This document shows, one piece after another, positions 37,360 through 50,857 of a DNA stretch of 64,000 bases. The number at the start of each line of letters is the position of its first letter. Within the stretch, counting starts at the first letter, position 1. Origin of the DNA: Eledone cirrhosa (Eukaryota); NCBI GenBank assembly GCA_964016885.1, contig OZ024762.1, forward strand, positions 26,474,001 to 26,538,000. The letters run 5' to 3'. A program made the position numbers and the translations under genes. Under the pieces are notes generated by a model. That model was not told where the DNA came from. It saw only the letters and a program-made list of their open reading frames with translations, and searched no databases.

Positions 37360-40185
37360 AGGAAAAAGTATGACCCCCGACGGCAGAGCTCAAGCCGTTT
37401 CGACGGCTATTTCTGGACTAAATTTGAATGTTTAGCCTGGTAAATAAATAGCCGAACTTGTCAAGGGATACTTCCTTATATGGGAGGATTATAGTTGTCA
37501 AGAGGATTGGTCAAAATTTGTTGTAAACAAAAATAAATCTATCATGGCATTTGGTGGGAGGTAGGAGTGGCTGAACTTGCCTGTAGAAAATCGAGGGAGT
37601 GAGTGGAGCCGGTCAAGCATTGAAACTGAAATCTATACAGCAGATTCTAAGGATAGTGTATGAAAAGTCGAAACATTGTTCTGGAGAAAATGGAGGAGGT
37701 GAGTTTATAGAATAGGTAAGTCAAATGAGAGTAGGAGACAATAAAAATAAAAAAATATATAAAATTAGAAATGAATAAAAAAAACAAAAACAGTAGAGTC
37801 TATAAACAGCTGCTATAATTAGTAGGTGTTGCTTGTACAGCGAAAGCTATAGAAAAGGTTAATAAGATGAGAATGGAAAATACTAAATAAGAAATTGTAG
37901 AAGTGGGTAGTGAAAAAATATATAACTTTTCAGGGGTCTAACACAGCTGCTATAAATAGTTAGTACAGCGTAATCCGCCAATGCTATCTTACAATTACAG
38001 GTTAATCAGTTGAGAATAGAAAATACTAAATAAGAAATTTTGAAATTTATGAATTGGAGTAGTAACAAAAAAGATACAAAATTACAGAGGTCTAACATAT
38101 CTGCTATAAATAGTTAGTCAAGCGTATTCGGCCAATTCTATCTTAAAATTACAGGGTTGGGGGCACTGAGACTACAGAGGCCCGATTGGCTGCATCGGGG
38201 TAGGCGAAAAGGGAAAAACAGACGACGAAGAAGATCGGGGGTGGAAGGAATTGATAGGGTGATACGGGAGGAAGAAGAAAACATAGAGGAAAAGTAAAGA
38301 GGTATATCTACCTGTGTAAGCTGGGGTTTCCTCTAACTTATTCGGCAGGTGTGTGGTATCAGCCCTTGTCTACCCACCCGGGTCGTTATGGGGTTTGAGG
38401 GCGAGGTAAGTCCTACGCAATCTGTGTTTGCATGGGGTTACCAGTTCGTCTTTCTTGTTTAGGAGTTGGTCCTTCGAAAACAGCATTTGTAATGTTTGCT
38501 CCGAGCATAAGTGAGCCAAGTGAGATTGTAGGTTATATTATTATCTTTGAGGTCCCAGATGTGGCCCGAAAATCTTCTTTAGGCTCCTCGAAAAGCACTT
38601 CCCACTACAACACCGTTACCACAACATAATCAACAAAAACACCACCAAACTCTCCTACAGCACCACACCTAACTTCGCACAACACATCGTCTCTTCAAAC
38701 AACAAAAAACTCCACCCCTATGGAAGAAACAACCTAGACATCAGTGGAGAGCCGACCAGGAGGTGTAACTGCCCTGATAGATCTACGTGCCCCCTCAACA
38801 ACAGATGCCGAGAACGTAACGTGATCTACCAGTGCAACGTGAGGACGGACACCTCCAACAAAGCTTATATAGGATTAACCGCTTGTGACTTCAAGACCCG
38901 ACTCTACCAACACAGTCATACGTTCCGAAACCCGGTCCGGTGACATGCCACTACACTTTCGGGCCACAACTGGGACCTCCAAGATAATAATATAACCTAC
39001 AATCTCACTTGGAACTTACTGTCCAGAGCTAACTCTTACACGGGAGGACGCCGTCCGTGTAAGTTATCCTCGGAGGAAACATTACAAATGCTGTTGTCGA
39101 AGAACCAACTCCAAAACAAGAAAGACGAACTGGTAACCGCATGCAAACACAGATTGCGTAGGATTTACCTCGCCCTCAAACCCCATAACGACCCGGGTGG
39201 GTAGACAAGGGCTGATACCACCCACTTGCCGAATAAGTTAGAGGAAACCCCAGCTTACATAGGTAGATGTACCTCTTTTCTTTTCCTCTATGTTTTCTTC
39301 TTCCCTCCGTCTCATCCTATCACTTCCTTCCACCCCCGTTCTTCTTCCTCGTCTGTTTTTCCCCTTTCGCCTACCCCGATGCAGCCAATCGGGCCTATGT
39401 AGCCTCAGTACCCCCACCCCTGTAATTTTAAGATATAATTAAGAAGAATACGTTTGACTAACTATTTATAGCATATGTGTTAGACCCCTGTAATTTTGTA
39501 TCTTTTTTGTTACTACTCCAATTCATAAATTTCAAAATTTCTTATTTAGTATTTTCTATTCTCAACTGATTAACCTGTAATTGTAAGATAGCATTGGCGG
39601 ATTAGGTTTACTAACTATTTATAGCAGCTGTGTTAGACACCTGAAAAGTTTTATATTTTTTCACTACCCACTTCTACAATTTCTTATTTAGTATTTTCCA
39701 TTCTCATCTTATTAAACTTTTCTATAGCTTTCGCTGTACAAGCAACACCTACTAATTATAGCAGCTGTTTATAGACTCTACTGTTTTAGTTTTTTTATTC
39801 ATTTCTCACTATCTAATTTTATATTTTTTTTTATTGTCTCCTACTCTCATTTGACTTACCTATTCTATAAACTCCCCTCCTCCATTTTCTCCAGAACAAT
39901 TTTTCGACTTTTCATACATTATCCTTAGAATCTGCTGTATAGATTTCAGTTTCAACGCTTGACCGGCCCCACTCACTCCCTCATTGTTCTACAGGCAAGT
40001 TCAGCCACTCCTACCTCCCACCAAATGCCATGATAGAATTATTTGTGTTTACAACAAATTTTGACCAATCCTCTTGACAACTACAATCTTCCCATATAAG
40101 AAAGTACTCTTACCAGGCTAAACATTCAAATTTAGTCCAGAAATAGGCTTGAAACGGCTTGAGCTCTGTCACCGGGGTCATACTT

Positions 40186-40190
<5 letters not shown>
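37360..40190. mobile_element. Penelope-like element as a large inverted structure: minus arm 37360-38572, plus copy about 38590-40190 with GIY-YIG remnant
   Basis: CNCPDRSTCPLNNRC, NVIYQC, YIGLTACDFKTRLYQH at 38765-38915. The ~1.2-kb arms are reverse complements with scattered differences. Confidence 0.85.
37363..37476 (-). ncRNA. Type I HHR with U3:A8 core (UUGACAA) and branched stem II at the PLE 3' end
   Basis: gtatccc-TTGACAA-gtt cggctattt...aaatagccg tc-GAAA-cggc ttgagctct gccg-TC-ggg ggtc atac. GUC triplet. Confidence 0.65.
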
Positions 40191-40248
<58 letters not shown>

Positions 40249-40251
<3 letters not shown>

Positions 40252-41418
40252 ATGTATATATAATGTATTTTGCAATACACTTTATGCTTAATTAAAAGCA
40301 TTTTGAAGACCGTAAGCTATTGTTTTAAAGTAGTGACAAATTCACTCACTTTGATCTCAGCAAACAGGGGAGATGAGCCGACAAGACTTGTTTCGCTTTG
40401 GTTGAAGCTTATCAAGGCCAACTACCCCACCTGTCTGCTGAGATCATTGATGTTATATATATAATAATCAGGAGCTGATTATTCAGAGCGGTTGTTGGTC
40501 AGGCAGAAATTAAAAATTAGAATTGGAGCTCTAAAATAGCAATATATATATGGATGTATATATAATGTATTTTGCAATACACTTTATGCTTAATTGAAAG
40601 CATTTTGAAGACCGTAAGCTATTGTTTTAAAGTAGTGACAAAGTCACTGAGATCAAAGTGAGTGAATTTGTCACTACTTTAAAACAATAGCTTACGGTCT
40701 TCAAATAGCTTTTAATTAAGCATAAAGTGTATTGCAAAATACATTATATATACATCCATATATATATTGCTATTTCAGAGCTCCAATTCTAATTTTTAAT
40801 TTCTGCCTGACCAACAACCGCTCTGCATAATCAGCTCCTGATTATTTACTAGATTTCTATAAGAATATAACATCAATGATCTCAGCAGACAGGTGGGGTA
40901 GTTGGCCTTGATAAGCTTCAACCAAAGCGAAACAAGTCTTGTCGGCTTATCTCCCCTGTTTGCTGAGATCAAAGTGAGTGAATTTGTCACTACTTTAAAA
41001 CAATAGCTTACGGTCTTCAAAATGCTTTTAATTAAGCATAAAGTGTATTGCAAAATACATTATATATACATCCATATATATATTGCTATTTCAGAGCTCC
41101 AATTCTGATTTTTAATTTCTGCCTGACCAACAACCGCTCTGCATAATCAGCTCCTGATTATTTACTAGATTTCTATAAGAATATAACATCAATGATCTCA
41201 GCAGACAGGTGGGGTAGTTGGCGTTGATAAGCTTCAACCAAAGCGAAACAAGTCTTGTCGGCTTATCTCCCCTGTTTGCTGAGATCAAAGTGAGTGAGTT
41301 TGTCACTACTTTAAAACAATAGCTTACGGTCTTCAAAATGCTCTTAATTAAGCATAAAGTGTATTGCAAAATACATTATATATACATCCATATATATATT
41401 GCTATTTCAGAGCTCCAA

Positions 41419-41424
<6 letters not shown>
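40249..41424 (+). mobile_element. Retrozyme-like array: inverted 1.3 monomers (40249-40646) plus about 2.5 tandem 316-bp monomers, in (TA)n
   Basis: 316-bp period (cores at 40908 and 41224). Homologous to the 310-bp family. Confidence 0.85.
40877..40971 (+). ncRNA. Type I HHR with U3:A8 core (UUGAUAA); copies at 41193-41287 (+) and 40352-40446 (-)
   Basis: ggcc-TTGATAA-gctt caacca aagc-GAAA-caa gtc ttg-TC-ggct. Long stem I extension tgatctcagcagacagg/cctgtttgctgagatca. Confidence 0.75.
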
Positions 41425-41499
<75 letters not shown>

Positions 41500-41531
41500 A
41501 GATCATAAGATGGTTAAAAAGTGTTCCAAGT

Positions 41532-41600
41532 ATTTTATTATGCGCATTTCAAAAACAAATATCATCATGGGATGATATCTGCGTTCTCATCAGTTAAAAT
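41532..41600 (-). ncRNA. Type I HHR (family also at 50535-50603 - and 50664-50720 +; fragment at 12940-13103)
   Basis: CTGATGA-gaac gcagatatcatc ccat gatgatatttgt tttt-GAAA-tgcgca-TA-ataaaat. Confidence 0.75.
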
Positions 41601-41659
41601 AGGGAGACATGATATGAAGCTTAAAAAACACTTGTGAACAGTGAAGTTTTAAATTAACA

Positions 41660-44070
41660 TATGTAAAATAAAGTAAGATGGATATATGAGATTGAGAAAC
41701 AAATGAGGAGGGTAGGAAAAGGTAAGGAAGAGGAAGATAGAAAATAAAGGATGGTGGGGGAGAGTATAAGAAGGAAGGATGATAGAGGAGGAGAAATGAG
41801 TGATAGAGAGAGAGAGAAATAGCCTTTACAACTGAGAAAACTTTGTCTCACAGAGAGAAATTAAAAAACCATTGGGAGATAATAGATAATTTAAAAAGAT
41901 TTTGAAATTAAAAGTTAATGAGGTTTATGGATGTTGATGTCTGTGATTGAAGAAAAAGGAATTAGGAATAGTATTAATTTAGGTTTATATATTGAAGGGT
42001 TTAATAATATGTGCGAAAAAAAAGAGTTTATTAATATGTATTATTAAAATAAAAAAGATTAAGGATATTAAGGATATAATGTGAAAGAAGGAGAAGAATA
42101 AATGAATTATGAACTTAGAGGAATTAGTTAGGGTTTAAGTTTGTTTTTATGTATTGTAATATGTAAAAGTAAATAATAGGTTTAAAACGAGCATGGAAGG
42201 AGAGAAGAATAAAAGAGAATTTAAGGAAGAAAACATATTTAACGTCAAAACGTATATATGTTTATAAACATTTTCTAATGGTAATATTATTATATATTAA
42301 AAAATATATAGTTTCTATGGCCAATAATATGATAAAAAATGGAAAAATGGAAAATGCTGTAGTGAGTAATAATATGAATTGAGAAGTAATTGGGAAGTAA
42401 AAGTTACAGATTAAAGATTAGAAATTAAAAAAGAAAAAAAGGAAGAAAGGGAAAAGGATAAAAAGAAGAAAGATAGGAGATCACAACGACATAGAGTGAG
42501 TAAATTGTATAATATAATATACTGAAATAAGGTAGAAAGATGGATATATTTGTAAACGATATATAGCCTTTGAGAAAAGAAGATTTTAAACTAATTAGGT
42601 TTTGAGATATTAGCTGTATATTTTATGGAATGTTCTATGGGATTTATGCAAGCAGAGCGAATATAAATCCGTACGTCTATTTATTATAGAATTAAAATTA
42701 GATATAATGGTAAATTTCTCGGCTAGGCAGAGATTACATGGGAAGGATAGGGAAGAATTCAGGTAAGGAAAGATGTTGCAAAACTTTCTCCAATAGATGT
42801 TATAGTTAATATGTTTGTCTTTTAAGGACCATATGAGTTCCGAGAGTGTCGTGTTAGTTCTTTTAAGTTGGTATTTTAAAGACGATTTGTGATTATAAAA
42901 TCTTGCATTAAAGGAAGTGGAAGTGGAACCGAAATAGGTAAAAGAATTAGTACCAGTTATAACCTTACATTCATACACTAAGTTTTTATCAAGACATTGG
43001 TTATTAAGAGGAAATTTAGTTCTAACAGGGCAATTACAATTACGATTAGAGAAATTAACAGAGTTATTAACAAGTGACCTATTATTCTTTATAGAAGGAA
43101 TTGGTTTGGAGAAGTTATTTACGATAGGAAATATAGTTTCCTGATTTAGATTGGTATTATGAACATTCAACGAAGTTACGTTTGACGTCGTATTTAAATT
43201 TACTGAATCTAACCTAGAGTTAACATTGACGTCGGGTATACTACTGCTATTATTATGACGCTCAGTGTTGGATGTATGTACTTTATTACTTAATATGTTA
43301 TTATTGTGTTTAGAGATAATGTTAGAGATGTTGGAAGTGGTGGAATAAGAGAATTTGATTGTATGTTTGTTAATGATTTTACTATAGATATGCGAGGGAG
43401 GGAAGCATTTATGTAAGGCCCTAAAGAATAGTTTAGGAATATTATTAGTGATAGATAGAGAAAAAGGAGCATTATACCAAATCATATTTTTGTATCTAGG
43501 TCTTTTATTTAAGTTATTGGAATGTTCATAATTAACTATTTTACTATAAGTCCTTCGATGATTGATTTCTTTACTGTATTTAATTTTATCAGGATAGCCG
43601 GCTTTGGAAAGCACATTTTTATAGTAATTGGCATTAGCGTCGAAGATAACTTTATTAGAGGATAGATTTGAGATTATCTTTTCAATATTACTGACTATAG
43701 CATTTTCAACGTTAGTGGGGTGGTTAGATTTAAAATTAACATAATTTAGATTCCCATTGTTTTTATGGTAAGGGTAATATAGGCCAGTGTCAAGATTAAG
43801 GGATATATCCAAGAAGTTATCTAGTTTGACGTTGTTATCAAATTCAATTTTAAGGTTATGGTGCTTAAATAGATCAAGTATATTGTTCTTAATAATTGTT
43901 TCAACTTTTGGCACAAGGCCAGCAATTAAACAGTGCATTACTGGTACTTTATTTTATCGACCCCGTAAGGATGAAAGGCAAATAATATTAAGGTTAACTA
44001 AATTACAGTTTAAGACAGTAAAAAGGGCATCGTCACGATAAATTCCACCGCGAAGTTGAGGAATTTTCCG
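41660..44070 (-). mobile_element. Penelope-like element, 5'-truncated (RT C-terminal part plus GIY-YIG), with SINE insertion
   Basis: GGIYRDDAL at about 44022-44050, NFLDISLNL, CNC..FPLNNQC, LVY, YFGSTSTSFNARFYNH, CNLCLAEK. Long 3' region. Confidence 0.85.
43893..43982 (-). mobile_element. 5'-truncated SINE inside PLE RT
   Basis: Reverse complement of the SINE 3' half; supplies the [15 protein letters not shown] start of ORF 42610..43938. Confidence 0.85.
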
Positions 44071-45416: not shown

Positions 45417-46209
45417 CTTGGACTGTTGAAGTGAACAGACGTGTTTCTATTGCTCTCTACAAAGTCAGTATCCAGCTACCCAGCTTTAAAGCCTATTTGA
45501 CCGAACATATATATGTATATATATTTGTAACCACGTGCTTTTCCTACCATCTCGTAAGTACGTTTTCATAACTACAGATTATTATATACATTCGTTTTTC
45601 TCTTAATATCTTCAAACAACCAAATAACCCAAAACTTTTAACAGCCTTAAACAACCAAATAACCAAATCTCACATCCATAAAAGAGAATACACATCTATA
45701 TATATACGCTACCTTAATATCTTCAAATAACCAAAGGCTCACTCACATAAGGAAAAAAAAGTATATACAAATACACGTGCTCTCCCTTCAAACTCGCAAG
45801 TAAGTCTTCTTAACTACAAACTATTATATACACTTTTTTTTCCTTGGATATCTTCAAACAACCAAATGACCAAAAACTATTAAGATCCTCAAACAACCAA
45901 ATTCACATCCATAGGAGAGAATATATATATATACACGATTCTTTAATTTCATCAAATAATATTATATACACCCGTTTTTTCAAATATTATATACACTCGT
46001 TTTTCCTTGGATATCTTCAAACAACAAATAACCAAAAACTATTAACATCCTCAAACAACCAAACTCACACCCATAAGAGAGAAAATATATATATATATAC
46101 GCGATTCTTTAATTTCTTCAAATAACCAAAGTCTCACTAACGTATCAAATAACAAATATCTTAAAACGCACACAAGGATAATAATAATTTAAAAAAAAAA
46201 AGAAAAAAT

Positions 46210-47088
46210 ATGACTACTGACCAGCAAACCCACAACGGACGAAATTGGTTTGAAAATGAAATTGACCCCTTACTAAACACATGGTTTTCTCTGTCACAAA
46301 CATCAAACATTAACGCGTCATGTCTGAATGAAATTGATGAAAAAACAGCCCAAACATTTACGACGAGGTCTGCTAAGCAGATATACAACAAATTAAAACA
46401 CATCGAAGTCTCTTTCAAACAAATTCAAAACCCTTTTGAAAAACTTCGACATATTTACTCTAATGGACAAACACAACAACAACAACAACAACAGCCAGAA
46501 AGCCAGGACCAACCACTACTGAATTCAAGCATCGCTGAACAACTAAATGACTGTATCACTCAGCCATCATTATCGCCATCACCATCACCACCGTCACCAT
46601 CTCCTGCCACACCTACACCTTCTGCCACACCAATTGCTAGTAATGGACCACTGCCCTCTCTCCCACCACAGTTGTCATCATCATCATCATCACCACCAAT
46701 GCTTTCTTTCCCCACATCACCACCACAACCATGCCATAGTCAAAAGAACTATAAAAAGAAAAGTTCTATGGAGCTGTATGCACCTCCCACTACACATACT
46801 AGAAACCCCCAAATATGCCGCTACTCACTACGTCAGAGGCTATGCACACGTAGCGACTGTACATTTACCCATTTACCGGGTACTAGGCGCACTAACGCTG
46901 CCAGCCATCACCAAAGCACGCTGCCCGCACGTATAGGTCGCAGTCCCAAAATCTGCCAAAATTCCAAACGTGAGAGGCTGTGTCTGCTGACTGACTGTCC
47001 CTTCACTCATCTTCCTGGGACACAATGCACGAACAGAAAAGGGGCTTCATGCCAACCCACAAACCACAATAAAGCCACCCCCTGCTGA
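46210..47088 (+). CDS. LINE ORF1 with two CCCH zinc-finger repeats
   Basis: CRYSLRQRLCTRSDCTFTHLPGT and CQNSKRERLCLLTDCPFTHLPGT (C-x8-C-x4-C-x3-H). Confidence 0.7.
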   Translation: MTTDQQTHNGRNWFENEIDPLLNTWFSLSQTSNINASCLNEIDEKTAQTFTTRSAKQIYNKLKHIEVSFKQIQNPFEKLRHIYSNGQTQQQQQQQPESQDQPLLNSSIAEQLNDCITQPSLSPSPSPPSPSPATPTPSATPIASNGPLPSLPPQLSSSSSSPPMLSFPTSPPQPCHSQKNYKKKSSMELYAPPTTHTRNPQICRYSLRQRLCTRSDCTFTHLPGTRRTNAASHHQSTLPARIGRSPKICQNSKRERLCLLTDCPFTHLPGTQCTNRKGASCQPTNHNKATPC

Positions 47089-47439
47089 GGTAATGCTGCT
47101 CCAGTCTCCTCACAAAGACATGATTACAACGACAACAAATACAACAACAACAAAAATAACGCTGCTCCAGTCTTTTCACAAAGACACAATTACAACAAAT
47201 ACAACAACAACAACAAAAGAGGGAACTGCAACCCTATCCAATGTTGTAACCACAAATCCAATCAAAAACTGCTCCCTGAACAAAAAAGAATCTTTCTTTT
47301 TTAGCCATGAACCTGGCAAAAGAGATAGAGAAAAACATTTTAGCCATCACCCAACACTATCCTTGCTGTCACTAACACACAATCACAAAACAAGCCCCCT
47401 GCAACAGTAAAAACCAGCCACCACACTAGCCACCACATT

Positions 47440-50366
47440 CTTACTCAATACACAAGGTATCAGCCCATCCAACAATGCACAGAAATGGAAGATCCAATTC
47501 ATTGAGGATTGGGTTGGTAACCATCTATTTCACACCCCCTTCTTCATTCTTACTGAGACCCACCTTGACAACTCCCACTTGGAGGCCGAAGTAAGAGTGA
47601 GAAATTTCACAACCATCCGTGCGGATCGTGTTGGCAGAAGGAAGGGTGGAATTGCCATTTTCCTGCATGATTCCTTTACGGCAGATGGCAACACAACATT
47701 CTCTAATGGATACTGTGAATCAGTCACTGTGCACAATAAAGCCAATGACCTGACATTAGTTGGGCTCTATAGGCCGCCACAAACACCCATAATCTGTTTC
47801 AAAGAATGCCTCAACATTATTAAATGCTTTATCAAACAGTGCCATTCTAGCAACATACTTTTGATGGGAGTCTTTAATCTACCCTGTGTCGATTGGTCTA
47901 CATGTAGTTTGAAACCAGGCTCCACGGCCTCAACCACTGACAAAGAGGCTGTCGAGTCACTTCTTGACTTCATGAATGAGTTTTTCTTGTCTCAACTTGT
48001 CCTTGCACGAACGAGGCATCAGAAGAACATTCTGGATCTAGTGTTTAGTAACCACACTAACACTATACATAATATTACAGTGGAAAAAACCCTTCTCTCA
48101 GACCATGACATGGTTCTTTGTAACCTGAGAGTCCACCAGCCGAAAGCTAATCCCAGGGTCCTCTCTCCAGCACACCCATTTGATAACATGGATCTCTACA
48201 ATGCCAACTGGGATGCAATTATGAACGAACTATCACATGTCGACTGGTCTTTTACACACGCACACACTTCCACCAACATCAAAACATCTTGGCAGATCTT
48301 TGTAGACACACTGTACCAAATATATGTACAAAACACACCCCACCAAAACCTGTGAAAAAAACCAAGTGCAGTATCCCCCAAAACAGAAAAACAATTATCA
48401 GAAAAATAAAAAGAACAAACAAAAAAATTAACACACTAAAATACTGCCAATAGCAACACACGCATTCAATGGCTATCACCCTGCTTGAGTCAACACAATA
48501 TAACCTCCAGCAATGCATGAAGACCATCATCAATAACCAAAGAATAGCTGAAGAGTGGTGGGCTATTGAGAAAATCAAACTCAACCGCAAAGTGTTCTTC
48601 TGATTCGCTAAAAAACACAAGGTCACCGTCTCCACTGATGGCCCCCTAGTTGAAAATGGCAGACTCCAGGACAATGCCAAAACCATGGGCGAGATACTGC
48701 AGAAACAATACTTCTGTTTTCAGCAATCACGATATGGCCGATCTGGGCCGTATCAGTGATATTAACCCCCAACACACTATATCAGACATAACGTTTGGCG
48801 CCCATGATGTCTTAGCGGCAATAAACGAAATTAAACACAATTCAGCAGTAGGCCCCGACAGGTTCCCTGCTTGTGTCCTGAATGTGTGTCGACACCAACT
48901 TGCAACTCCTCTTGCTAATCTGTGGAGGAACTCACTGGACACTGGCTACATTCCTGAAAACTTTCTGTCCCAGTCCGTGGTCCCAGTCTTCAAAAAGGGA
49001 AATAAGTCCCTTGCAGTGAACTACCGTCCGATCTCACTCACCTCTCATATTATCAAGGTATTTGAGAGGGCGGTGAGATCACGAATAACCGACTTTCTTG
49101 AAAGCAACGGCCTGCTGAACTCCAACCAATATGGGTTCCGTAATGGAAGGGACTGCCTAACGTAGCTCCTGCATCACGTTTGACGATGTTTTGAGAGCCT
49201 TGGGAGAGGGCTCCAAAACTGATGTCGTCTACCTTGATTTCAGCAAGGCCTTTGACAGGGTTGATCATAAGTTTCTACTGAAAAAACTATCCAATGTTGG
49301 TGTCTCTGGAAGGTTACTACAGTGGATCAAATGTTTCCTGACAGGCAGAATCCAGCATGTTGTAGTCGAAAGAATAAAATCAAGCCCTGCCAAAGTCCGC
49401 AGTGGCGTCCCACAAAGCACTGTGTCGGGCCCACTTCTTTTCATCATCTACATTAATGACATTACTGATATCATCAAACACAGTGACATCAGAATCTTCG
49501 CAGATGATTCCAAGCTCCAAAGGGTCATCCATGAGGTGGGTGACCGGACTAGCCTTCAGTCAGACCTACTGGCTGTTATCCAATGGGCAGAGATGAATAA
49601 TATGCTGTTGAATGAGGATAAATTTTAACTAATCCACTTTGGAAATAAGGATGCTCTGAAACTACCATACTCTCCTCCTTTGGGTGAAACTCTGGTGGCT
49701 TCCAATTACATCAGAGTCCTGGGAGTAATTGTGGACAACAGTATAAGCTGGGCCACTCATATAAACAGCAAAGTTGATATGGCCCGCAGAATGTGTTCCT
49801 GGATTCTCAGAATTTTCCAGTCGAGATATAACCACACTGTTATCCATCCCTTCTCCATTTTTCCCGACCCCACCCTGAATACTGTTGTCCACTGTGGTCA
49901 CCTCACACGAAACAAAGTATCATGAAAGTTGAAGCACCCCAAAGGTCAATTACTAAAAAGATAGTTGGCATGACAGGCCTTGACTATTGGGGGTCGATTA
50001 GAAAAGCTCAAACTTTATTCTCTCCAACGTCGCCGTGAGAGCTACATTATCTGTATGATGTGGAAAATATTCCATCAGCTTAGCCCAAATGATGTTGGCA
50101 TCATCTTTAGTGTACACCCAAGGCTTGGGATCCGTGCTATCTGCCCACGACAAAAATCCCACTCGCTTCACATAACAACAATACGGCACAATTATTTAAC
50201 CTCAATTGGCCCTGCACTCTTTAACATTACACCAAAACACATCAAAGCAGAGACAGAGCCCATCAAGTTCAAGAAGTCTTTGGATAAATTGCTTCAAGAA
50301 ATCCCGGATAAGCCTCCTACACCCGGATATGCCTCCGTAAACAATAACTTCTCGAGTGGGCCATAG
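47440..50366 (+). pseudogene. CR1-type ORF2 (APE-RT), fragmented
   Basis: ORF pieces 47579..48355, 48650..49165, 49191..49628, 49680..49925 and 49980..50366 are collinear LINE ORF2 segments. Confidence 0.88.
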
Positions 50367-50496: not shown

Positions 50497-50503
<7 letters not shown>

Positions 50504-50845
50504 AGATCAAAAGATGGTTAAAGGAGTTCCATATATTTTATTATGCGCATTTCAAAAACAAACATCATCAAGCAATAATATTTGTGTTTTCATCAGATAA
50601 AACATGTTGATTTAAAACTGCACTATCCACAAGTGTTTTTTACCCTTCATATCATGTTCTCCTGTTTTATCTGATGAAAACACAAATATCATCTTGTTTT
50701 TGAAATGCGCATAATAAAATATATGGAACACCTTTAACCATCTTTTGATCTTATATTATGCATACTCCAGTCCCACAAACTGTAGAGTGCTTCTTATCCG
50801 ATATCTGCATTGCTTTATTGTACTACAATAAAACTCACCTCCTAC
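50497..50845. mobile_element. Short non-coding fold-back element with two oppositely oriented HHRs (50535-50603 -, 50664-50720 +)
   Basis: gttttat-CTGATGA...GAAA-tgcgca-TA-ataaaat on both strands; 7-bp stem I; (TA)n flanks. Confidence 0.78.
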
Positions 50846-50857
50846 ATATATATATAT

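Follow-up and report, generated by a model that had tools for sequence, protein, structure and literature searches.

The locus at 40249-41424 of the window, a stretch of 64,000 nucleotides from Eledone cirrhosa (GCA_964016885.1, contig OZ024762.1, positions 26,474,001 to 26,538,000 of the forward strand), raises the question of how a tandem repeat came to lie head-to-head with an inverted copy of itself between two (TA)n tracts. The direct arm of this array (array B; 40647-41424, plus strand) holds 2.5 units with a period of 316 nt and its outer end, tail included, lies at a position termed site 2. The inverted arm (about 40249-40648, minus strand) holds 1.3 units with an internal deletion of approximately 19 nt and has its outer end at site 1, an internal AU run. 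The (TA)n target tracts occupy 40190-40249 on the left flank and 41424-41499 on the right, the latter being common to the 3’ end of an unrelated minus-strand Penelope-like element (PLE). A second array (array A) likewise has (TA)n on both flanks. Its inverted arm (3708-3979, minus strand) amounts to 0.9 unit, lacks 25 nt internally, has its outer end at site 1 and is joined to (TA)n at 3662-3715; its direct arm (3992-7567, plus strand; 11.5 units, period 310) ends at site 2, fused to (TA)n. The original prediction, made from the letters of the window, placed the array ends about 25 nt beyond the internal run; the direct arms were found to end 26 nt (array A) and about 23 nt (array B) past the G of GCTATTTC, and both inverted arms are fused to (TA)n at the run itself. 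The tail of array B extends from site 1 at about 41389-41399 to site 2 at 41424 (plus strand), a length of 25-38 nt. A scan of array B for frames of at least 120 aa found none overlapping it. Rfam matches to miRNAs at 40613-40693 were rejected, as they represent the perfect DNA palindrome of the array B arm junction.

The units of the two arrays define families A and B, which align over 144 nt with 73% identity (E 1e-19) and a local score of 150, compared with 28.8 ± 4.9 and a maximum of 67 for 1000 dinucleotide shuffles. The families are homologous and belong to one superfamily, in agreement with the proposal of two diverged families sharing a scaffold, and a motif search together with the alignment located every motif named in that proposal in both arrays and in the stated order. 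An exact search of the 3.0-Gb genome gave 19,348 matches to the scaffold pattern and none to a control pattern, so that the superfamily numbers at least 19,348 copies by this count. An A-specific 23-mer occurs 15,638 times, corresponding to approximately 5 Mb of family A DNA (15,638 x 310 nt), and a B-specific 24-mer 704 times. Intermediate and older lineages were also recovered by similarity searches. Complete units clustered at 94% yielded 25 representatives, of which 18 were aligned, the remaining seven being short, deletion-bearing or redundant. Identity between lineages is 71-87% in the scaffold (columns 1-175) and 48-62% in the ribozyme domain. Families A and B very probably represent two young lineages within a single superfamily of non-LTR retrozymes, apparently non-coding. 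The description of an old family holds for the superfamily, which is old, but not for A and B themselves, which are very young since six of 24 A arrays contain no single-copy variant.

Metazoan non-LTR retrozymes as described by Cervera and de la Pena in 2020 (PMC7229834, main text) are dispersed arrays of tandem, low-GC units of 150-450 bp with one type I hammerhead each. The tandem units of A and B likewise have a GC content under 50% and lengths within 150-450 bp, and are scattered in many arrays. Several of the details that had seemed striking in the window are ordinary for this class. The class is described in the available text of PMC7229834 and of bioRxiv 10.64898/2026.07.22.740005, which limits the suggestion of an undescribed family; that suggestion stands in so far as no Rfam family was matched at gathering threshold by units of A or B. 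Neither the families nor head-to-head retrozyme arrays were found in the literature searched, mostly open papers whose supplements may list such families. The retrozymes of PMC7229834 were shown to be expressed as circles, whereas A and B are known here from DNA alone and are likened to them on grounds other than sequence comparison. The main text of that paper proposes, as a hypothesis, that a PLE produces tandem cDNA from a circular template; the text available gives no head-to-head anatomy, mapped ends or haplotype test, and the words ‘inverted’ and ‘microsatellite’ are absent from the main text.

Each unit of A and B has the topology of a type I hammerhead, comprising stem I, core, stem II, GAAA, stem III and cut site, and this fold in every tandem unit supports the retrozyme-like character first ascribed to them. 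In the direct arm of array B the hammerhead at 40878-40970 (plus strand) has its core at 40908-40914 with a U3-A8 pair, a long stem I extension, a near-palindromic stem III and a predicted cut after 40943 (z -7.6; Rfam HH9 E 0.002, below gathering threshold). A second copy at 41194-41286 (plus strand) carries a private C>G at 41223 that breaks the stem I pair beside the core, and the copy in the inverted arm (40359-40429, minus strand; core UUGAUAA at 40415) matches HH9 below threshold at E 0.009. The family A hammerhead at 4241-4329 (plus strand), repeated every 310 nt, has its core at 4270-4276 with a C3-G8 pair, the stem III palindrome ACGCGU, a predicted cut after 4300 and a 16-bp stem I extension (z -6.2; HH9 E 0.24, a weak match). 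HH9 was the only sub-threshold Rfam match that is meaningful by E-value (E 0.002-0.24).

The cores CUGAAGA/GUA and UUGAUAA/GUC are present in the respective families as predicted. They differ by the C3-G8/U3-A8 exchange published for PLE hammerheads (PMC4209133, in the text available). Positions 3 and 8 read U-A in 15 of 18 aligned rows and C-G in three, with no mixed pair; position N7 is free, most A copies among the mapped loci reading CUGAUGA. Stem III occurs in six distinct sequences, each a full or near palindrome for which dimer pairing is far more favourable than hairpin formation. The minimal and dimeric PLE hammerheads of the same source share the palindromic helix III, published there as acting in a dimer, and U3-A8 in place of C3-G8, but the elements examined here have stem I extensions of 11-16 bp and lineage-specific palindromes of 6-12 nt. 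No hammerhead was found on the opposite strand of either unit, and a viroid-like RNA with ribozymes in both polarities is thus not what these units encode. In its core and stem II, family A agrees at 25 of 28 columns with a distinct element of 130 nt (window 655-786), and its flanking segment (columns 291-336) has 35-46% identity to the other lineages, compared with 82-93% among those. From these comparisons the family A ribozyme may reasonably be regarded as a module swapped in from another small element.

RNAalifold predicted hairpins H1 and H2, the longer-range helices P1 and H5 around the end sites, and the ribozyme stems. In a 57-pair model 92.3% of cells were paired, compared with 87.2% in shuffles and at most 44 in slid controls, and 66 cells were changed on both sides compared with 24.3 in shuffles. 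Pairs with double-sided change numbered 15 against 12.3, a count reached by 30 of 500 shuffles; as the 18 rows represent approximately five lineages, these counts are not independent. Of the 15 pairs with compensation, 11 belong to the ribozyme domain. The claim of a covarying structure is borne out for the conservation of pairing (92% of cells; 66 against 24 double changes), but the scaffold contributes only three convincing compensated pairs, its other helices being nearly invariant and so little informative. Helices H4, H6 and H7 were discarded, real compensation being absent. As circles, A and B fold at z -4.4 and -5.9; the reverse complements also fold well (-4.6 and -3.4), so that folding energy alone cannot pick the strand.

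Hairpin H2 of family B, GUGUAUU-GCAA-AAUACAU (41043-41060, plus strand; also 40727 and 41359), and GAAUAUU-UUCG-AAUAUUC of family A are one and the same hairpin, as had been recognised, and both fall in alignment columns 28-47 with two compensated pairs across the families. The stem is conserved and the class of the loop is variable: relatives carry UUCG, GCAA, AUCA, ACCA or GCCA. The extra-stable form of UUCG requires a C-G closing pair; the UUCG loop of family A is closed by U-A. Computed hairpin energies were -2.3 kcal/mol for UUCG and -2.8 kcal/mol for ACCA. Selection for two stable tetraloop classes, as originally proposed, finds no support, given the AUCA, ACCA and GCCA loops and an energy for UUCG no better than for ACCA. 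The stem I extensions, first described as unrelated, are indeed unlike between A and B (48% identity over that domain), but are positional homologues linked by compensatory changes through intermediate families. The conserved scaffold core (GCUAUUUCAGAGC ... CAACCGCUCU; 41085-41140 in array B, plus strand), in which helices P1 and H5 bracket both end sites, is likely to be a docking site for reverse transcriptase, in the sense of a putative assignment.

Arms were mapped in 38 A and 46 B loci, picked as the best similarity matches or the first places on contig C1 and so not at random; 13 one-armed loci were left out, together with loci rearranged or cut by a sequence edge. Two arms, with an inverted, 5’-truncated copy lying head-to-head, were present in 69 insertions among these 84 loci. 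Site 1 was defined as -10 to 0 from the G of GCTATTTC, at the internal AU run, and site 2 as +15 to +32. The outer ends of the 69 insertions comprised 61 site 1/site 2, one site 2/site 2, none site 1/site 1 and seven with one unclassifiable end. Unlike ends were thus found in 61 of 62 classifiable insertions (p about 1e-17 under independent even choice), with site windows that were chosen after the data had been seen; slightly wider ones would make L019 (+29/+34) a site 2/site 2 insertion. The lone site 2/site 2 insertion looks like a local re-duplication. Both sites are also used by older lineages, in which site 1 lies approximately 12 nt before the G with a target overlap of approximately 3 nt because (AUAC)n stands in place of (UA)n; owing to this shift the tail spans 25-38 nt. 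Pairing of (UA)n with the target was rejected as a requirement, since these older (AUAC)n families end at the same place with the same short overlap. Target flanks were AT-rich or microsatellite across the mapped loci. Inner ends were truncated at scattered positions with junction overlaps mostly of 0-7 nt, and fell at the cleavage site in 5 of 48 cases in family A (p 0.34) and 9 of 60 in family B (p 0.045). A pile-up of inner ends at this site was dismissed as weak and partly due to stem I microhomology. With no clear enrichment, the inner ends provide no real DNA footprint of cleavage in vivo.

PLE insertions comprise an inverted copy with a tail of 30-40 bp, often at one end only (PMC8557442), and a PLE enzyme studied in vitro starts at two internal sites, both target strands being cut and extended by a predicted dimer (PMC11167929). 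As far as the available text of these papers extends, PLEs resemble A and B in the inverted 5’-truncated copy, the tail at one end and the AT-rich or (TA)n targets, and in PMC11167929 also in two internal start sites downstream of the hammerhead. A and B differ from PLEs in being apparently non-coding and in that both arms are multi-unit arrays. The match in end anatomy, an inverted copy with a one-sided tail, indicates insertion of the PLE type, and A and B are very probably retrozymes that depend on a PLE. The coupling of one site to each arm is near absolute in A and B, whereas the in vitro work saw no difference in start site between strands and, in the text available, offered no coupling. 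The value of the present observations lies in this rule and in the copy-rank variant patterns described below, neither of which was found in the literature searched. Priming of both arms on one and the same RNA is probable.

A cleavage site is traversed by 44 of 48 arms in family A and by 59 of 60 in family B. The arms average 4.4 units in A (maximum 12.7) and 1.9 in B (maximum 9.3), and in 16 of 24 A arrays and 16 of 30 B arrays each of the two is longer than one unit. Twin priming on one cut linear monomer is ruled out, since the arms overlap in sequence and run across cleavage sites. In the 24 A arrays, 15 alleles were fixed in all copies of both arms. Seven of these were each private to a single array, five of them within the main family and two within a divergent subfamily, and a lighter mask added two further array-private fixed alleles. 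One private allele, 145T>G, is present in 19 of 19 copies of array L075 and disrupts a conserved P1 pair. Sharing of variants between the arms of family A was 2/15 at equal rank and 13/105 at other ranks. Alleles fixed in both arms without an excess at the same rank indicate a bottleneck of one monomer followed by amplification, and on balance the variants suggest that the family A template would have been a circular monomer. Amplification of a monomer circle from RNA to RNA by a host polymerase in the manner of a viroid, followed by reverse transcription, would impose the same bottleneck as rolling-circle reverse transcription, and amplification of this kind is reported for a plant retrozyme (PMC9695139, in the text available). 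This route is nonetheless highly improbable here, given that the opposite strand of both units is without a hammerhead and that the DNA pattern needs no extra step.

In the 30 B arrays, derived variants were shared at equal rank in 6 of 58 cases compared with 3 of 127 at other ranks (p 0.028), and arm-to-arm mismatch was 1.19% at equal rank compared with 1.63% (p 0.0045). Array L215 of this family has two linked variants at rank 1 in both arms. The two arms can accordingly copy one heterogeneous RNA in the same order. The signal is modest and most B variants are unshared; the first 14 arrays contain 54 singletons that had the opportunity to be shared. An alternative favoured by the variants mirrored at equal rank in B is that the same two-site PLE priming always acts on a long uncut multimer, with the ribozyme largely idle and no circle formed. 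Insertion in vitro is independent of ribozyme cleavage and uncleaved RNA is the main substrate (PMC11167929, in the text available), L198 shows that a source array can reach at least 23 units, and young A arrays are so uniform that copies of a multimer would also look uniform. However, a multimer could neither fix new variants across 19-22 copies of both arms (L075, L205) nor explain the preservation of the core, the 3-8 pair (18/18 rows) and the stem III palindrome across lineages; arms longer than their parents would be impossible, and family A shows no same-rank sharing. As an explanation for both families it is unlikely.

In L071, L218, L022 and array A of the window the copies combine two haplotypes in a mosaic, the switches between them falling within units. 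With haplotypes at non-adjacent ranks, copying from one pure circle does not suffice, and either template switching or gene conversion must be invoked. In array L217 (family B) a 10-nt deletion is present in three consecutive outer units of one arm and not in the inner ones, consistent with a template switch.

A further alternative holds that insertions of one to two units were later amplified by unequal crossing-over and homogenised by gene conversion, and local amplification after insertion is proposed in the available text of bioRxiv 10.64898/2026.07.22.740005. It would explain both the array-fixed alleles and the scattered shared variants, and DNA re-duplication is clear at L200/L201, with a second copy at L199. 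Neighbouring copies, however, are no more alike than distant ones (divergence 0.20 against 0.17% in A, 1.33 against 1.44% in B), and copy number shows no rise with single-copy variation (rho -0.39, p 0.06 in A; 0.17, p 0.38 in B); the arrays were likely born in a single insertion. The longest arrays are in the youngest family and the shortest in the oldest, the arms of the oldest lineages measuring about 1.3-1.5 units, a value partly set by how these were found. Arrays of 8-15 copies without any single-copy variant also exist, and long arms on both sides retain exact outer ends. Later amplification is for these reasons improbable as the general origin of the arrays. At L200 and L201 (contig C14, 25.216-25.238 Mb) a family A insertion has been re-amplified in DNA as a higher-order repeat with its flanks, in contrast to the remaining loci.

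The unmet Rfam gathering thresholds, and the possibility that assembly polishing lowered variation within arrays, would be compatible with ordinary satellite DNA bearing chance ribozyme-like motifs or with an assembly artefact. This is scarcely credible in view of the full hammerhead topology with covarying stems, the dispersed insertions with fixed ends on many contigs, the resolution of locus-specific alleles and single-copy variants, and independent contigs from a sequencing run (X1) that show loose ends into TA at both sites.

The reading preferred here, held at a probability of roughly 70% as the whole explanation, is that head-to-head arrays are born in one event by two-site, PLE-driven reverse transcription. 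After transcription of an array, neighbouring hammerheads would cut as a dimer through the palindromic stem III, and a lone monomer circle would stay uncut; cleavage dependent on dimers, followed by circularisation of the RNA, would be in line with the available text of PMC7229834. Cleavage was seen in one of nine retrozyme dimers tested in bioRxiv 10.64898/2026.07.22.740005, in the text available. On the 175-nt scaffold the PLE protein would dock and begin synthesis, and the ribozyme domain would be free in sequence and constrained in shape. The PLE enzyme would cut both strands of the (TA)n tract and reverse transcription for each strand would begin at its own site, the two sites lying next to each other on one RNA. 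The template in family A would mostly be one circular monomer copied repeatedly, with an occasional switch to a second molecule; in family B it would at least sometimes be an uncut or oligomeric RNA copied in the same order by both arms. The process would end by truncation and microhomology joining of the inner ends. More tentatively, the insertions could be an in vivo record of a PLE dimer that assigns one start site to each strand, with rolling-circle reverse transcription from both ends giving a satellite-like palindrome of 2-7 kb in one step; family A, with its presumably swapped-in ribozyme, might then owe its rank as the most abundant family (at least 15,638 occurrences) to more efficient formation of stable circles.

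How animal retrozymes move, and how inverted PLE insertions with one tail arise, are stated to be open questions in the available text of PMC7229834, PMC8557442, PMC11167929 and bioRxiv 10.64898/2026.07.22.740005. The one-site rule and the rank patterns make the insertion mechanism of retrozymes and PLEs directly testable: thousands of very young insertions are available in which ends and copy variants discriminate coupled from independent priming, a circular from a multimeric template, and birth from later amplification. A minimal signal for reverse transcription of the PLE type may be seen in the 175-nt scaffold, a candidate on which two start sites are mapped. On the preferred reading, arrays resembling satellites, which make up about 5 Mb in family A alone, could each arise in a single event.

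The same preprint treats retrozymes as non-autonomous derivatives of PLEs and, like the present data, reports co-occurrence with PLEs and a similar unit length. Its available text deals mostly with vertebrates, reports homology to pLTRs in as many as 24 of 57 Xenopus families, where none was found for A and B among the PLE ends compared, and invokes local amplification after insertion, where the A and B data favour birth at insertion. Non-autonomous Chlamys elements such as MRC1 (PMC8557442, in the text available) are also PLE passengers with multicopy insertions but, unlike A and B, share 3’ sequence with autonomous families and are without canonical hammerheads. No match to the scaffold was found in the PLE ends compared here, which comprised fragments and three families, a minority of the PLE families of the genome, in roughly 1 Mb. 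Each of these three families (that of 42610-43953, a young intact relative of 38551-38940, and a third in which the cysteine linker differs) carries hammerheads and end sites of its own, and other hammerhead-bearing elements here also have two end sites of their own. An intact PLE is present in the genome as 784-aa frames in tandem and inverted copies with YRDDG and YIGLT motifs; its Atlas neighbours carry HTH_animal, GIY-YIG and RVT_1 at 0.95-0.97, the Pfam scan itself being blank. One two-armed insertion of the young intact PLE has one arm per site, at sites of its own.

A family A query matched 20 sequencing-run rows with 18 organism labels from 17 studies; RNA runs were not among the matches listed, which is neutral on expression. 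Run X1 has very high depth, many variants and the loose ends described above, and resembles genomic DNA of this organism. Family A is nearly unchanged in runs X4-X20, labelled as 17 other organisms, and runs X5 and X13 each contain one closed unit-length contig. Run X24, raw DNA with the organism label of X5, yielded no family A reads in the approximately 1% sampled, too little to count as a test. The matches in other organisms probably reflect cross-library contamination by a very abundant repeat; alternatively, family A may have been transferred between species.

Several further elements were observed in and around the window. The 5’-truncated PLE at 41500-43953 (minus strand; 447-aa frame at 42610-43953) belongs to a very abundant older family, has a minimal hammerhead at about 41590 and has its 3’ end in the (TA)n of array B; at 50500-50850 two of its ends lie head-to-head, each arm stopping at a different end site. 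At 38551-40190 (plus strand) there is an older copy of the PLE family that has young intact members, with a tail of approximately 85 nt. Such young members occur on contig C1 at 437201900-437214600 as 784-aa frames in 3531-bp tandem units and head-to-head pairs. The 130-nt hammerhead element (window 655-786, plus strand; also L204, L076, L109 and L152; approximately 2000 first-look candidates) is inserted in (TA)n as pairs in inverted orientation, the two arms of which use different end sites, and its ribozyme resembles that of family A. A short motif of its tail recurs in the young PLE, and this PLE may drive the element. Two retrozyme-like families with units of approximately 430 and 467 nt and canonical hammerhead cores (window 59000-59950; L069:150-1500, L143, L150) share a short motif with the end of the third PLE family (window about 10700-11490). 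A hammerhead-like motif with a long stem II lies at 12480-12540 (minus strand). Two regions with frameshifted endonuclease and reverse-transcriptase frames, at 23904-29135 and 46165-50366 (both plus strand), resemble non-LTR retrotransposons. Simple repeats of the types (GTG)n, (GTA)n and (GTGGT)n fill approximately 7 kb at 16053-23262 and show a strong strand skew.
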